Notes under the pieces: generated by a model
Seen by the model: the letters and a program-made list of their open reading frames with translations, nothing else
Databases searched by the model: none
Told to the model about the DNA's origin: nothing
Made by a program: the position numbers and the translations under genes
In this document: one piece after another, positions 33,356-42,526 of the stretch
Layout of the letters: each line of letters starts with the position of its first letter
Position numbering within the stretch: position 1 is the first letter of the stretch
Origin: Escherichia phage dhaeg
Strand: one strand, 5' to 3'
DNA: 64,000 bases
Sequence record: MN850609.1

Positions 33356-33360
33356 GTTAT

Positions 33361-33390
33361 GGGACTCTTCGGAGTCCCATTTTTGTTTCT
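33361..33390 (+). terminator. intrinsic terminator
   Basis: gggactCTTCGGagtccc + TTTTTGTTT. Confidence 0.7.
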
Positions 33391-33848: not shown

Positions 33849-33876
33849 GGTTTACTTTGGTACAGGTTGTGTTATT
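33849..33876 (+). promoter_or_regulatory. early promoter cassette with inverted repeat ggtacaggt/acctgtacc
   Basis: gtttac 33849-33854; tattat 33871-33876. Confidence 0.5.
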
Positions 33877-33919
33877 ATAGACCTGTACCAAATAATACGA
33901 AAACAAACTGGAGAATAAA

Positions 33920-34326: not shown

Positions 34327-34614
34327 ATGTTTATGACCACTTATTTCGATACTCGTAAAAATTTCTGTGAAGTTGTTTTCTCTAAGGCAGGTAAAGATGT
34401 TCCTGCTGACAAACAGCCTACTCGTGAATCCATTAAGGCCTATGCTGATGTGGTTTGTCCAGTAGAATTCCGTACAGTCAATGGTCGTGACACCCTAGCA
34501 ATCACTAAGCTCAGCCATGATATTAACATCGACCCTAGCGCTGCCCGCGAAGTCAATACTTCTGACATCTACGGTGGTAATGTTAAATCACATGGATTTC
34601 AGATGAGGTTCTAA
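34327..34614 (+). CDS. hypothetical protein (95 aa)
   Basis: ATG at 34327 after gagga SD; the upstream part of the track ORF is a hairpin (ggaggCTTCGGcctcc). Confidence 0.45.
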   Translation: MFMTTYFDTRKNFCEVVFSKAGKDVPADKQPTRESIKAYADVVCPVEFRTVNGRDTLAITKLSHDINIDPSAAREVNTSDIYGGNVKSHGFQMRF

Positions 34615-34808
34615 TGCAACTATTCTTATCACAAACCGTCCAGTTAAAAGGTGTAGGTATTCCTGGAATGATTTCTAAGGTCTTGCCTGGTTTTAAATTA
34701 GGTAATGCTACTATTAAAGAAGCCTACACCGTCCTGTGGGTCGATGGAACTGAAGACGTTCGTATGGGTTCTGAATTGTCTGTAATCAAATGTTTGAAGC
34801 GAGGATAA
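34614..34808 (+). CDS. hypothetical protein (64 aa)
   Basis: TAATG-coupled ORF. Confidence 0.4.
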   Translation: MQLFLSQTVQLKGVGIPGMISKVLPGFKLGNATIKEAYTVLWVDGTEDVRMGSELSVIKCLKRG

Positions 34809-34809
34809 T

Positions 34810-35025
34810 ATGGTTAAGAAACTGATTCAGAAATTGTTAGGTACGGAAATGGTTGAAGTGACTTATCGTGTGACTGATGTTTCTCCTCATACGGCAGACC
34901 ATTTAGAACCTTATATCATGACAATTAAAATGCCTAAACATGACGGTGGCTTATCCATTGAAGACCGACTACCTGGTTATGGTCATTGGGCTGATGTGGA
35001 GATTATCAGTGTCAAAGATATTTAA
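34810..35025 (+). CDS. hypothetical small protein, tandem paralog 1
   Basis: 71 aa; LxKKLxxxEMVEVTYRV.D.SP ... RLP..G.W....IISVKD shared with next ORF. Confidence 0.55.
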   Translation: MVKKLIQKLLGTEMVEVTYRVTDVSPHTADHLEPYIMTIKMPKHDGGLSIEDRLPGYGHWADVEIISVKDI

Positions 35026-35034
35026 GGAACCTTC

Positions 35035-35247
35035 ATGATTAATAAATTATTTAAAAAGCTGTTTGGTTTGGAAATGGTTGAAGTGACTTATCGTGTTATT
35101 GATTTATCACCGCCATATGCTTGCGATGAAGATGCTATTAAAACTGTTGTTATGCGAAAAACATATCGCGGGCGGTCAATTAAAGAAAGATTACCGGACC
35201 ATGGCATGTGGTATGCAACCAAGATTATAAGTGTCAAAGATGTCTGA
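35035..35247 (+). CDS. hypothetical small protein, tandem paralog 2
   Basis: 70 aa; paralog of 34810..35025. Confidence 0.55.
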   Translation: MINKLFKKLFGLEMVEVTYRVIDLSPPYACDEDAIKTVVMRKTYRGRSIKERLPDHGMWYATKIISVKDV

Positions 35248-35698
35248 GTTAGAGATAAGAAGTAACTTTCCGTGGCCATCATGCGCATTAAGTAACTTTG
35301 CTAAATGGCCTTTCGTTATGGATGGTATCCAATTCGGTGGGCTCGAAGGATTCCTCCAAGGATGTAAGGTGAAAAATGTTGAACAGCAAAGACGTATATT
35401 TAGGATGTCCGGGTTGGACGCGCAAAAAGCTGGACGAGCTTATGCTAGAGCTCAGGACCGTGGCACGTTGTTCTGGCTTGGAACCCCGTTTTCAAGATAT
35501 TCCGAAGCATGGAAAGAGCTTTACGAAAGTGCGTATTTTGAAGCAGCGCTCCAGAACAAAGGATTTCGCGATGCGTTACAAGCCACTAAAGGTAAGGTTT
35601 TAAAGCATTCAATGGCAAGCCACCTAAAAGAATGTGATACAATACTAACTGAAAAAGAGTTTATCGACATCCTAAACAAATTGAGAGATTTATTATGA
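35231..35698 (+). CDS. NADAR/YbiA-like (DUF1768-like) domain protein
   Basis: 155 aa; SNF..WP...DG..F...E.F.Q..K ... R.I....G.....KAGRA pattern resembling E. coli YbiA-family proteins; not verified by search. Confidence 0.5.
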   Translation: MSKMSELEIRSNFPWPSCALSNFAKWPFVMDGIQFGGLEGFLQGCKVKNVEQQRRIFRMSGLDAQKAGRAYARAQDRGTLFWLGTPFSRYSEAWKELYESAYFEAALQNKGFRDALQATKGKVLKHSMASHLKECDTILTEKEFIDILNKLRDLL

Positions 35699-38338: not shown

Positions 38339-40399
38339 ATGACCGAACAATTGAATGAGGTGTTTGAGTCCGAAGGCACCCTGCCTACTGTAAACTTAAA
38401 CCCAAAACTTAAAGTACCGCAGATTTGGAAGATTGGCGACGCCGAATCCCAATTAGTGGCCCGTATGGTATCTTATGCCTCTGAAGGCGATGCTATTAAA
38501 CAGGTTAAATTAGGTGATAAATACGCCCATGTTATCCTTATGAGCCTTTCAGCTAAAGGTTCTCCGGCCGAACTTAAAGGTGGCTTAGGCCCTACTCCTA
38601 TTGATGCTATTAATACCATTTTCGACGTAGTATTCGAACAAGTTAAAAAGCTTCGTATGGATGCTGTGATGTTCCGTTTTCCAACCAAGAAAATGAAAGG
38701 GCAAGGACCTATTGTCCAACGGATTATCCAACGTTTGGTAGCACAGAAAACCGGTGGACGTTTTAAAGTAGTTCCGGCTATGTACCAATTTACCGGTAAA
38801 CATACTTATATCCTAGTAGTTCGTAAACAAGCTGATATCGAAGATATCAAAGGTATGCCTGGAATTAATGCCGAATTGTATACTAAGGTAGATTCTGATG
38901 TTGGTGAAGTTTATATTTCTAAAAAAGAAGGCCTGCAGGTTACTAAAGAAACTGCTATTGCCGGCAGTATTGCTAAAGTTGAAGAACGTCGCACTGATAA
39001 AATGGTTATAACCAAGACTAAGATTTCTCGTCGCGCTATTGCAGCAAGCCAGTCTTTAGAATCCTATCGTAATGAAAGTGAACTGTTTAAGAAATATGAA
39101 GCCACTGCCGCTGATTTTAATAAACCGGCAACAGCTCCATTAATCCCTGATGCCCAAGAAATGGTTACTAATAACAATTCTCCTGCGGCTAAAAATAAGG
39201 TTGCTAATATAGTAGCTGAAGGCACTGCTGAAGAGTTGCATTACGATTATAAAATGTTTCCTCTTCACGGTATAGGTGAAATCCAAGAGAAAATTAAAGA
39301 GAGAATCCTTACGGCCATCAAAAACGAACCTTTGACATCTGTTAAAGCTCTAGAAAAATATGCCTCTGTTATTAATACCGTTTTCGAAGAATACAAAGGT
39401 GAATGGCTGGCTAAGCATAACAAAACTCGTAAAGGTCAGCCTGATGACGTCTGGAATGAATTAACCGAGTCCAAGTGGAAAGCAGCCAAGACCAAGTTCA
39501 TTAAAAAACGTGTGTATAGTTTTGCTGGTGTAGGTGGTGGTATTATGGTTGATATTACTTTAGGTCATAGTGCAGATAAATACACCCCTTCTCAAAAACG
39601 TGGTATTCGTGAATATTGTGGCTCCGGATATGGCGATATCAATAACCTTCTTTTAGGACGATATAATCCTCAGAACTATGAGGTTATGAGCGAAAAAGAT
39701 ATCGAATCTGCAGTTAATAATTTGGATTCTGCTTTTGAAAACGGTGATAGATTACCTGAAGGCATTACTGTTTATCGTGCACAGAGTATGACGTGGGCCA
39801 TATATAATGCTTTAGTCAAAAATAAAGTATTCTATTTTAGAAACTTTGTATCCACTTCACTGACTCCTATTATTTTCGGCCGTTTTGGTGTTACTCATGC
39901 GGGTGTGGGTCTTTTAGAGCCTGAAGTTAGAGCCGAACTTACCGTAGATAAAAATGATGAAGGTTATACTAAGGTCCAAGGTTCCGGCGACAAGTTGGTT
40001 AAAGTTGGTTGGGCTATTGATGGGGCTTCTAAGGTTAACGTAGTATTCCCTGGGCAACTTGGCATTGCTACTGAAGCTGAAATCATTCTCCCGCGTGGAC
40101 TAATGGTAAAAATTAATAAAATAACAGATGCATCCAATAATGACGGTATAATATCCAACAATACAAAACTCATTCAAGCTGAAGTTATGACAACAGATGA
40201 GCTTCAAGAGTCAGTGGTATATGATGGTGATGTACTAATGGAAACTGGTGAATTGGTTGTATACCAAGATGACTTCGATACTTCCGAAAGCCCTGTATCT
40301 TTTGATTCATTTGTTAAATCTACACGGTTTGACGTACTGCCTCTTTTGGCTTCATGCATAGACCTCTATGACATCCCAGAAAAATTCATCCAAGGGTAA
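38339..40399 (+). CDS. alt: Alt-like ADP-ribosyltransferase, paralog 1
   Basis: 686 aa; N-terminal packaging region like T4 Alt (..LP.TNL.PK.K.PQI, MDAVMFRFPTKKMKG); C-terminal R-S-ExE ART signature (VYRAQ, FVSTSL, EAEIILPRG). Confidence 0.85.
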   Translation: MTEQLNEVFESEGTLPTVNLNPKLKVPQIWKIGDAESQLVARMVSYASEGDAIKQVKLGDKYAHVILMSLSAKGSPAELKGGLGPTPIDAINTIFDVVFEQVKKLRMDAVMFRFPTKKMKGQGPIVQRIIQRLVAQKTGGRFKVVPAMYQFTGKHTYILVVRKQADIEDIKGMPGINAELYTKVDSDVGEVYISKKEGLQVTKETAIAGSIAKVEERRTDKMVITKTKISRRAIAASQSLESYRNESELFKKYEATAADFNKPATAPLIPDAQEMVTNNNSPAAKNKVANIVAEGTAEELHYDYKMFPLHGIGEIQEKIKERILTAIKNEPLTSVKALEKYASVINTVFEEYKGEWLAKHNKTRKGQPDDVWNELTESKWKAAKTKFIKKRVYSFAGVGGGIMVDITLGHSADKYTPSQKRGIREYCGSGYGDINNLLLGRYNPQNYEVMSEKDIESAVNNLDSAFENGDRLPEGITVYRAQSMTWAIYNALVKNKVFYFRNFVSTSLTPIIFGRFGVTHAGVGLLEPEVRAELTVDKNDEGYTKVQGSGDKLVKVGWAIDGASKVNVVFPGQLGIATEAEIILPRGLMVKINKITDASNNDGIISNNTKLIQAEVMTTDELQESVVYDGDVLMETGELVVYQDDFDTSESPVSFDSFVKSTRFDVLPLLASCIDLYDIPEKFIQG

Positions 40400-40402
40400 A
40401 TA

Positions 40403-42526
40403 ATGGAAAATTTAAACGAAGTTTTTGATAGTGATTCCGCTAAAAACTATCCAGTAACAAATCTTAAACCAGGCTCCGGTATCCCACAGATTTTCTCTAT
40501 TCAAGCACCAGGTAACGATAACCTGGTTGCTCGTATGGTATCTTATGCGTCTCAAGGAGACGCTATTAAAATGGTTAAGCCCGGCGACAAATACGTTCAT
40601 GTTATTTTAATGAGTTTGTCGAGCAAGGGTGCTCCAGCTGAACTAAAAGGTGGCCTTGGTTCCGACCCACTTGGTACATTGAATACTATTTTCGATACGA
40701 TATATGAACAAGTAAATAAACTTAAAATGGATGCGGTTTTGTTCCGTTTCCCTACCAAGAAAATGAAAGGTAAGGGCCCTACTGTTCAGCGTGTATTAGC
40801 TCGTTTGGCGATGGCACGTACCGGTGGTAAGTTTAAAGTTGTCGATAGCATGTTCCAGTTTAGTGGTAAACATACATACGTTCTTTTAGCACGTCGTGGC
40901 ACTAATATCGAAGATATCAAGGGTATGCCTGAAATTGATGCGGACCTTTATACCAAGGTTGAGTCTAAAGTCGGTGAAGTTTATGTTTCTAAGAAAACCG
41001 GCCAGGCCGTAAGTAAGGTCGAAGCCGTAGCAGCATCTATTGCACAGGTTGAAGAGAAACGTACCGATAAGGCTGTTATCTCTCGTACTAAAATTTCCCG
41101 TCGTATGGCTGCAGCAGCGCAGTATTCTACTGCCGAACCTGAAACTTTATCACCTAAAGAATTGCAGGTTTATAACGAGTTTGAAGCTTCCGTCCCTGTT
41201 CACTCGGCCGAAGGCCCTGAGAACGAAGGTATTGAACAAATTAGCCAGAACTTTAAAAAAGGTGCTATTACTAAAATGCGTCAGGCCTCTCAGTTTAAAT
41301 CTAAGAGTGAGGACCTTGCCAACTTTAGATACACCATTGCTCTCACACACGCTTTAATGACTGATAGTAAATTTAAACTAAATTATGCTAATAGAGATAA
41401 ACAAGGGTTTGAAATTTACTCTAATAATATGGCATTTTTTAATACGGAAGTCGATAGACTTTTAAGCGGCCTTTCTCAAATCAATACTACCAATAGTCTG
41501 GATATTATTAAGAGAATTGTTAATAACCTGAGTGCCCGTTTTCAGGGGTCTCCTTCAGAGAAAGCATCCCGAATTGCTTTCGCTATGGAAGCCGTTTATA
41601 AACTGATTAACGATTCTATTAGCGATGCATATGCTTATTCAGGCGAGCTCATTAAACCTAAGGGCTTGACCAAAGACGAAAGTAATGCCATTATTGAATA
41701 TTGTGCGGCTGAATATGCTCCTATGAACTTATTCCTTTTAGGTAAACCTGAATCCGAAAACAATACAACAGCTATTAAATTGATTAAGGATTTAGACTCA
41801 GCATTTACCAAGGGTATTAAACTTCCTAAGGGTACTATTTTGTATCGTGGTCAGGATTTACCATACAAAATTCTGCGCCATAATATTGATAACAAAACCT
41901 TTTACTTTAAGAACTTTGTATCCGCTTCATTAAAGCCTAATATCTTTGGTGAATTTGGTAAAAATTATATGGCCCTCGACAACCAAGCAGTTTTTGTTGG
42001 TGATGAAGGTTCTTTATCCTCCGCCGATGAGTTGTTTAAATTGGCCAGTGGTAGTTCATCTGACGTAGGTGAAGTTGATGATGAAGAGGTAGAATGGGAA
42101 GAAGACGAGTTTGGTAATCCAATTGCACCTGAAGGCCCTGCAGACAGGATTGCTGAAATTGGTATGGTTATTCGAGGTGCTGAAGCAGTTAAAGTTATCG
42201 CTCCTGGTGACCTTACAGAATATGCCGAAGAAGCGGAAATTATCCTTCCGCGCGGATTATTGTTGAAGGTTGATAAAGTAGCAGCTTTTGCTATGAATGA
42301 TAGGGTATCTCACAAATACCTTATGGAAGCTACAGTGACATCTCCTTCAGAACTCAGTGAGTCCGTTTACGATGGTGACCATCTGATGGAAACCGGCGAA
42401 GTTAAATTGATGAATGGGTTTAAAGAATTCCTAGTTTCAGAATCTGTTTCAGAAAGTAACGAGGCTATGGAAATCCTTGCTGCATCTTTGGACATCTCTT
42501 CTTTACCAAATAAATTCAAAATGTAG
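40403..42526 (+). CDS. Alt-like ADP-ribosyltransferase, paralog 2
   Basis: 707 aa; first ~230 aa closely similar to paralog 1, divergent middle; ART signature (LYRGQ, FVSASL, EEAEIILPRG). Confidence 0.85.
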   Translation: MENLNEVFDSDSAKNYPVTNLKPGSGIPQIFSIQAPGNDNLVARMVSYASQGDAIKMVKPGDKYVHVILMSLSSKGAPAELKGGLGSDPLGTLNTIFDTIYEQVNKLKMDAVLFRFPTKKMKGKGPTVQRVLARLAMARTGGKFKVVDSMFQFSGKHTYVLLARRGTNIEDIKGMPEIDADLYTKVESKVGEVYVSKKTGQAVSKVEAVAASIAQVEEKRTDKAVISRTKISRRMAAAAQYSTAEPETLSPKELQVYNEFEASVPVHSAEGPENEGIEQISQNFKKGAITKMRQASQFKSKSEDLANFRYTIALTHALMTDSKFKLNYANRDKQGFEIYSNNMAFFNTEVDRLLSGLSQINTTNSLDIIKRIVNNLSARFQGSPSEKASRIAFAMEAVYKLINDSISDAYAYSGELIKPKGLTKDESNAIIEYCAAEYAPMNLFLLGKPESENNTTAIKLIKDLDSAFTKGIKLPKGTILYRGQDLPYKILRHNIDNKTFYFKNFVSASLKPNIFGEFGKNYMALDNQAVFVGDEGSLSSADELFKLASGSSSDVGEVDDEEVEWEEDEFGNPIAPEGPADRIAEIGMVIRGAEAVKVIAPGDLTEYAEEAEIILPRGLLLKVDKVAAFAMNDRVSHKYLMEATVTSPSELSESVYDGDHLMETGEVKLMNGFKEFLVSESVSESNEAMEILAASLDISSLPNKFKM

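Follow-up and report, generated by a model that had tools for sequence, protein, structure and literature searches.

The window analysed is a stretch of 64,000 nt from Escherichia phage dhaeg (MN850609.1), one strand, 5' to 3'. The phage is T-even, of the genus Dhakavirus, and over 24 kb shares about 96% identity with JS98, JS10 and Esco_phi_B-01. Between the homologues of T4 genes 30.5 and 30.3 it carries two adjacent small open reading frames (ORFs), copy A and copy B, shown by profile searches to be members of the T4 gene 30.4 family (Phage_T4_Y12I / PHROG 2042). The copies are diverged paralogues, and the second very probably entered this genome by recombination.

Copies A and B of gene 30.4

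The features of the pair are as follows.

34801-34805, + strand: Shine-Dalgarno sequence of copy A, GAGGA, read from the sequence.
34810-35025, + strand: copy A of gene 30.4, 71 aa, stop codon TAA, isoelectric point (pI) 5.7, net charge -3.
34879-34914, + strand: hypervariable loop 1 of copy A (codons 24-35), the main site of allele-class difference.
34845-34871 in A and 35070-35096 in B, + strand: 27-nt stretch GGAAATGGTTGAAGTGACTTATCGTGT, identical in both copies in the codon alignment.
35023-35034, + strand: A/B junction, in which the TAA of A overlaps the AAGGA of B, followed by ACCTTC.
35024-35028, + strand: Shine-Dalgarno sequence of copy B, AAGGA, read from the sequence.
35026-35034: spacer between A and B, 9 nt.
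35035-35247, + strand: copy B of gene 30.4, 70 aa, stop codon TGA, pI 9.4, net charge +4.

An earlier note, made from the sequence alone, had described two adjacent ORFs of 71 and 70 aa, 9 nt apart, with exact coordinates, lengths and spacing. It took them for paralogues with a shared motif and a divergent centre, and this is borne out. Aligned end to end by BLASTP with 38/71 identities (54%), one gap and E = 3e-22. Smith-Waterman score 164, compared with 22.9 +/- 4.2 for 2000 shuffles (z = 33.7), far above chance. The quoted motif is present in both copies, and the divergent part is the central segment, residues 24-52. Each copy possesses an ATG start and a Shine-Dalgarno sequence. The same tandem is found in 13 GenBank records (12 phages) and two metagenome contigs; it is therefore not an assembly artefact. 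No third 30.4 paralogue is detected in the 64-kb window by tblastn.

The leader AAGCGAGGATAAT followed by ATG, which precedes copy A, is common to most Dhakavirus and Gaprivervirus loci compared. Copy A ends in ATTTAA, followed by the Shine-Dalgarno sequence of B, with no overlap at its end of the type found at 30.3. The stop codon of copy B runs onto the ATG of 30.3 in the 8-nt overlap ATGTCTGA (35240-35247). No promoter or terminator was found between the copies, and no RNA structure at the junction (z = +1.2). The two copies share a reading frame, 225 nt apart, with only TAA and GGA ACC TTC between them; read-through of the stop codon of A would yield a fused A-B protein, an arrangement that is probably coincidental.

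PHROG 2042, the T4 30.4 family, is matched by A with E = 3.8e-35 (residues 1-71 on profile positions 1-72) and by B with E = 2.9e-26. PF26911 (Phage_T4_Y12I) is precomputed on database proteins 93-94% identical to A and to B; the Pfam scan of A and B themselves gave no match because the Pfam copy used is without model PF26911. A single gene at the same position is annotated as 30.4, conserved hypothetical, in JS98, T4, RB69, VR7 and PP01. In an exhaustive HMMER search of 1.84 billion cluster representatives the family occurs in only three clusters; it is therefore confined to T-even phages and offers no remote homologue from which to take an annotation. T4 gp30.4 (UniProt Q02405) has the same length, the same position between 30.5 and 30.3 and the same overlap onto the 30.3 start. 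It differs in sequence (47% identical to A, about 30% to B), in charge (pI 4.6, more acidic than A) and in number (one copy in T4, two here).

Structure models were built by AlphaFold2 with a 33-sequence alignment; pLDDT is the predicted local distance difference test.

Copy A model: pLDDT 85.7; helix 2-10; strands 14-23, 35-42 and 61-70; short helix 50-53.
Copy B model: pLDDT 84.6; helix 2-9; strands 14-23, 34-41 and 60-69; short helix 49-52.

Confident in both cases, the models show the same predicted fold for the two copies, soluble proteins of about 70 residues with an N-terminal amphipathic helix and a three-stranded antiparallel sheet; confidence is lowest in the two variable loops. The difference in net charge between A and B lies wholly within residues 24-52 and amounts to six units in the variable residues 24-35 and 43-52. 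In BFVD the A model pairs with copy B of phage WG01 (E = 7e-7, template-modelling (TM) score 0.74); beyond WG01, only uncharacterised proteins of the T4-like phages Merlin and EcS1 are matched. Foldseek comparison of both models with the PDB gives nothing below E = 0.6, and profile search of PDB sequences gives chance matches only (E above 0.4).

Age, allele classes and spread of copy B

Recent duplication followed by divergence, proposed in the earlier note, is contradicted by the silent sites. In the values below, pS and pN are the proportions of synonymous and nonsynonymous differences, and dS and dN the corresponding corrected distances. By the method of Nei and Gojobori, A and B differ with pS = 0.66 (dS ~1.6) and pN = 0.28 (dN 0.35), and the pairwise dN/dS that the note had named as a check is ~0.22. 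In the central third pS is 0.81. Silent sites are saturated, so that they could register no deeper split than this one. B differs from every A-type allele with pS 0.61-0.80, and T4-type from A-type alleles with pS 0.60-0.77; B is as far from the A alleles as is the T4 allele. Among A-type alleles pS is 0.31-0.60. A recent tandem duplicate is expected to show low synonymous divergence and to be closest to its neighbouring copy. Here the silent sites are saturated, and B is 48-77% identical, by segment, to the adjacent A.

Nor does the surrounding sequence agree with a recent duplication in this genome. The closest relatives of the phage, JS98, JS10 and CUA3 (96-99% identical), have one 30.4 copy each, and none of the JS98-clade records carries copy B. 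Copy A is 98.6% identical to that of CUA3 and differs from JS98 30.4 in only two residues. The protein of copy B is 100% identical to that of the Gapriverviruses TH54 and TH57. In a sliding comparison the window is 93-100% JS98-like on either side, copy A included, and at 34994-35243 it is 98-99% identical to TH54/TH57, the flanks of which are only 70-85% identical. Informative sites resemble JS98/CUA3 as far as 34968-34971 (codons 53-54 of A), then TH54/WG01, and JS98/CUA3 again from ~35197-35229. The segment so delimited is:

~34970-35225, + strand: segment of non-JS98 origin, comprising the 3' third of A, the junction and almost all of B.

The flanks being JS98-like and the JS98 clade being without B, the tandem therefore reached this phage through homologous recombination with a tandem-bearing relative.

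About 720 phage records carry a 30.4 homologue. A B-type gene is present in 14 of them, and the tandem in all but one of these 14, in the following phages.

WG01-like Dhakaviruses: WG01, fDHCT2, 04086, LHE83, PSD2002, ABTNLS3.
Gapriverviruses: TH54, TH57, TH44, CJ20, PSD2001, P896.

The two metagenome contigs carry B behind other A alleles, one of them of the SP18-like class, and in all B sits behind at least four A-allele classes. Both ORFs, their starts and their Shine-Dalgarno sites are intact in every tandem locus examined. The junction GAT ATT TAA GGA nnC TTC ATG is essentially constant across these loci, with two single-base variants in contig L035, which argues for a single origin of the arrangement. 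The tandems of WG01-like Dhakaviruses and Gapriverviruses have architecture and junction identical to those described here and a copy B 94-100% identical in protein. They differ in the upstream copy, V-type (VHPQDEPY) or W-type (WARNIEPY), where an H-type copy (HTADHLEPY) is found here; the combination of H-type and B occurs in no other record of the collection compared. In those records the tandem genes are annotated as hypothetical or not at all. The A/B arrangement is thus real but largely ordinary: the family is known, public genomes already contain the arrangement, though without comment, and what is new is the allele combination. Many B-bearing phages were isolated from duck feces, chicken feces, poultry fecal matter, duck sewage and swine feces, and the rest from sewage; this origin may only mirror the isolation sources of the genera, no baseline having been compared. 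In one tandem-bearing contig (L042 1936-2382) 447 nt without a called gene lie between B and 30.2, and adfN, the 30.3 gene, may be disrupted there.

Silent divergence of B is 2-10 times below that of its flanks in most pairs of tandem phages. Values of pS are as follows.

Window vs TH54: A 0.44, B 0.11, 30.3 0.49.
Window vs WG01: A 0.34, B 0.09, 30.3 0.37.
WG01 vs TH54: A 0.23, B 0.02, 30.3 0.23.
fDHCT2 vs PSD2001: A 0.32, B 0.05, 30.3 0.28.
WG01 vs P896 (weaker contrast): A 0.30, B 0.21, 30.3 0.25.

The low silent divergence of B relative to its flanks argues that B spread recently by recombination. Pairs involving L035 show no contrast between B and flanks; the B of this contig is more distant (pS 0.37, pN 0.04). 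The silent sites of B are thus free to vary, and a pN/pS of ~0.1 against this most distant copy shows purifying selection on the protein. B very probably moves as a cassette of ~290 bp made up of the last third of the upstream copy, the fixed 9-nt junction and B itself. The cassette has very probably spread recently across WG01-like Dhakaviruses and several Gapriverviruses, and in this phage has recombined into a JS98-type genome at ~34970-35225 rather than formed by recent duplication in place. This evolutionary account (old split, spread of B by recombination, entry into a JS98-type genome) is held with high confidence.

Single-copy chimeras are also found. Phage 212 (PQ765507, locus L045 701-913) has a single 30.4 gene in which an A-type N-terminus (MF[KN]KLIQKILGTEMVEVTYRV) is joined to a B body, and the same A/B chimera is present in three metagenome contigs (L022 1350-1562, L023 1400-1612, L024 280-492); in all four the B-type gene is the sole 30.4 copy. 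The crossover falls in the 27-nt stretch identical between the copies (34845-34871 and 35070-35096), which is therefore a recombination site between them. Judged from these sequences, the chimeras are the expected product of deletion by recombination between the copies. Ongoing gene conversion was considered for the 27-nt identity and set aside: a hand estimate with approximate codon usage is marginal, and 2 nt differ between the WG01 copies.

The allele survey covered 45 distinct 30.4 coding sequences from 44 loci. Alleles fall into about seven discrete classes, differing mostly in residues 24-35.

HTADHLEPY (H): JS98, PP01 and copy A of the window; RB69 is a more distant member.
VHPQDEPY (V-type): WG01, JS09.
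WARNIEPY (W-type): VR7, IME08.
GGQDIEPV: VR5.
YLQDNKEKV: SP18-like.
PPYACDEDA: class B, rare and nearly invariant, including copy B of the window.
YTDEHEEPQ: T4.

Classes do not track genera: Dhakavirus IME08 carries a class typical of Gapriverviruses, and Mosigvirus JS09 carries the WG01 class. The conserved scaffold comprises KLxxKLxG, VTYRVxD, RLPxxGxW and IISVKD, and residues 24-35 and 43-52 are variable. Among 30 A-type sequences pN/pS is 0.71 in loop 1 and 0.10-0.15 in the scaffold. The A copies of TH54 (L013 604-816) and WG01 (L002 3017-3229) differ at 24 nt; 15 of these fall in nt 69-98, and the final 118 nt are identical. This micro-mosaic patch suggests that loop-sized segments are exchanged between alleles. 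By its pattern of variation the 30.4 locus is a conserved scaffold with an exchangeable loop, and its allele classes appear, on strong grounds, to have been shuffled between T-even genera by homologous recombination. A diversity-generating retroelement was rejected for the loop, no second template copy being present in the window.

Two known modes of small-gene variation in T4-type phages may be compared. Recombination-driven tandem repetition of a small early anti-defence gene, the tifA accordion, is described for experimentally evolved T4 (PMC9391042); it is the model implied by a recent duplication, and the arms-race setting is likewise similar. Unlike the accordion, A and B are 54% identical, saturated at silent sites and fixed at two copies in many phages. 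The accordion copies reportedly arose recently, do not differ in sequence and work by dosage. Hyperplastic regions of T4-type genomes gain, lose and exchange uncharacterised small early ORFs as PeSL cassettes, through recombination between related phages at short conserved sequences (PMC2839356, PMC4122927). Unlike these, 30.4 has its exchange points inside the coding sequence, at the conserved 5' and 3' ends, and the 9-nt junction carries no promoter or stem-loop motif and no RNA structure.

Neighbouring genes and expression

The gene order is 31.1, 31, rIII, 30.9, 30.8, 30.7, 30.6, 30.5, A, B, 30.3, 30.2, 30.1, ligase, alt, alt. Around rIII-ligase it agrees with T4, JS98 and WG01, with A and B between 30.5 and 30.3. 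The immediate neighbours are:

34614-34808, + strand: gene 30.5 homologue, 64 aa; PHROG 1690, E = 1.5e-28; synteny with JS98.
35240-35698, + strand: gene 30.3 (adfN homologue), 152 aa; Pfam PF08010 Phage_30_3, E = 8e-66.

The TAA of 30.5 (34806-34808) lies 1 nt ahead of the ATG of copy A. For 30.3 the mechanical ORF list gives a GTG start at 35231; the conserved start is the ATG at 35240 that overlaps the stop codon of B. Matches of 30.3 to the YbiA/NADAR family are weak (TIGR02464, E = 0.05; PDB 2b3w, E = 0.81). In contigs L036-L041 (e.g. L036 1501-2331) 30.3/adfN is absent, and 30.4 ends in ATTTAA, followed by 15 nt and a 199-aa 30.2-like gene; from this lineage it follows that adfN is not universal and that the ATTTAA ending is not unique to tandems. 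In phages LZ (L005 1713-1917) and T2 a frameshift splits 30.4 into two short ORFs, which bear the annotations 30.4(A) and 30.4(B), a natural loss of the gene in the T2 group.

A promoter-like site with an extended -10 element (TTTACT, 16 nt, TG, TATTAT) lies at 33851-33878, just upstream of 30.7, and a strong terminator-like hairpin at 33359-33380, after 30.9; both are consensus matches only. A single early transcription unit may therefore run from 30.7 to 30.1. The earlier note had called the pair small early genes, which is in agreement with T4, where both transcript and protein of 30.4 are classed as early (PMC9697503, supplement files 4 and 6).

After the ligase gene two further tandem ORFs, 38339-40399 (686 aa) and 40403-42526 (707 aa), correspond to alta and altb, the paralogous ADP-ribosyltransferase genes of the JS98 and JS10 annotations, and make a second pair of stacked paralogues in the island. 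Like A and B, these are stacked, diverged, host-directed early paralogues, a few kb downstream; Alt differs from 30.4 in being a large ADP-ribosyltransferase of known activity.

Possible function and significance

In T4, gene 30.3 is adfN, which encodes a NADAR enzyme that reverses ADP-ribosylation of DNA by DarT1 and is required only with DarTG1 present (bioRxiv 10.1101/2025.11.20.689424), and Alt helps T4 to evade Mokosh type I. From this genomic context the anti-defence role suggested in the earlier note is plausible for A and B. Early in infection each copy would bind or inhibit, stoichiometrically, a host component that varies between strains, most plausibly one belonging to an anti-phage defence. 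Binding specificity would lie in the variable loops, a phage with both A and B would have two specificities, and B would keep the ancestral translational coupling to 30.3/adfN. As a whole, the explanation by an old, diverged 30.4 pair, spread of the cassette and an early binder is given a probability of about 0.5. Its functional part, in which A and B are two stacked specificities for a host or defence component that varies between strains and is bound early, is tentative. Somewhat more doubtful is its fuller form, in which 30.4 proteins are small scaffolds with interchangeable loops that neutralise polymorphic defences, B being a new specificity swept as a ~290-bp cassette through two T-even genera and stacking widening the host range.

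Several observations weigh against such a role. The crude loop pN/pS is below 1, and with a crude estimator that gives no value above 1 positive selection is therefore not claimed. The T4 transposon screens, as described, name rIIA/B, dmd, acb1, adfN and tk.4 for five cloned systems (RexAB, RnlAB, CBASS, DarTG1, DarTG2), and alt and nrdC.1 with Mokosh I and Septu; nowhere do they refer to gene 30.4. The gene can be lost, being frameshifted in T2 (MH751506) and LZ (FN868249). No informative match to A or B is given by Pfam, NCBIfam or PADLOC, and no significant one by PDB sequences or Foldseek. The tandem is rare, occurring in 13 of the ~720 records that carry a 30.4 homologue, and a 29-mer specific to B was found neither in JGI metagenomes nor in IMG/VR. 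Gene neighbourhood is weak evidence in phage early-gene clusters. Likeness to known anti-defence proteins is found in none of Pfam, NCBIfam, PDB, Foldseek and BFVD, no dedicated anti-defence library having been searched. A literature search turned up no paper devoted to gene 30.4, and in the sources consulted neither experiment nor homology gives it a function.

The main rival is neutral stacking of alleles, in which unequal recombination left two copies, one of them redundant and heading for loss. It would account for the rarity of the tandem and for the collapsed single-copy chimeras (phage 212, L022-L024), and it agrees with the dispensability of T4 30.4 on a laboratory host, where knock-down left fitness unchanged ("Not Fit", score -0.10; PMC11879866 supplement), and with the pseudogenes of T2 and LZ. 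It is nevertheless unlikely: the copies with their start signals are intact in every tandem locus, B is conserved at pN/pS ~0.1, and, though hardly diverged at silent sites, it has reached two genera and no fewer than four A-allele backgrounds, a pattern that resembles a selected sweep and not decay.

Improbable is a hetero-oligomer of A and B, an acidic and a basic partner on one scaffold. The pI values of 5.7 and 9.4 would suit it, and the helix and edge strands conserved between the copies could form an interface. Near-invariant B, however, stands next to A alleles that range in pI from 5.7 to 8.0 and differ strongly in their loops, the two copies do not co-vary, and a B-type protein is the sole copy in phage 212.

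Just as improbable is a role of 30.4 as an accessory of 30.3/adfN, either as an upstream frame that delivers ribosomes or as a partner of the enzyme. From T4 to Dhakavirus the 8-nt overlap ATGTCTGA is conserved, 30.3 lacks an obvious Shine-Dalgarno sequence of its own, and in the tandem B retains the overlap while A has acquired its own stop. Each gene nevertheless occurs without an intact other: L036-L041 keep 30.4 without 30.3, and T2 and LZ keep 30.3 with a frameshifted 30.4. In addition, the text of the T4 DarTG1 screen names 30.3 alone, and coupling leaves seven allele classes and two copies unexplained.

Lower still in probability is a small RNA-polymerase binder like the Gram-positive epsilon subunit YkzG, a reading prompted by the models. 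YkzG is said to resemble the phage T7 inhibitor Gp2. YkzG (4njc_A) is the best PDB match of the B model (E ~0.9, not significant; probability 0.80, TM-scores 0.49/0.55, root-mean-square deviation 3.7 over 57 columns) and the second of the A model (E ~0.9), a lead only; 30.4 is moreover expressed early and lies near alt. E values of 0.9 are, however, not significant, simple alpha+beta folds of 60-70 residues match by chance, no Gp2 chain appears in the top-50 lists of A or B, and there is no sequence signal. In the Mosigvirus AV110 a screen of 45 early proteins gave six growth inhibitors (gp94, 135, 204, 208, 214 and 263), all numbered far from the 30.4 homologue; this homologue, the 38th coding sequence of AV110, is not among them, its inclusion among the 45 not being verifiable.

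Least probable is recent duplication in place with fast divergence under positive selection: the copies are adjacent, in the same orientation and frame, with near-identical ends that include the 27-nt stretch, and a neighbour-joining tree puts B inside the A-type cluster on a very long branch, but the saturated silent sites, a dN/dS not above 1, the single-copy relatives and the near-identity of B to that of another genus speak against it.

Most small early T-even genes are without a function, and the neighbours adfN and alt have just been shown to counter defences. The 30.4 locus bears three marks of an arms race: discrete allele classes that differ mainly in one loop, exchange across genera, and a second class that has spread recently and is kept alongside the first. 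If the reading of 30.4 as a scaffold with interchangeable loops is true, stacking of B on A next to the anti-DarTG gene adfN would widen the host range, many carriers of B being from poultry and livestock. Gene 30.4, and the B cassette above all, is a cheap, well-defined anti-defence candidate with an uncertain pay-off, and the cassette is a modest lead for a new anti-defence gene.

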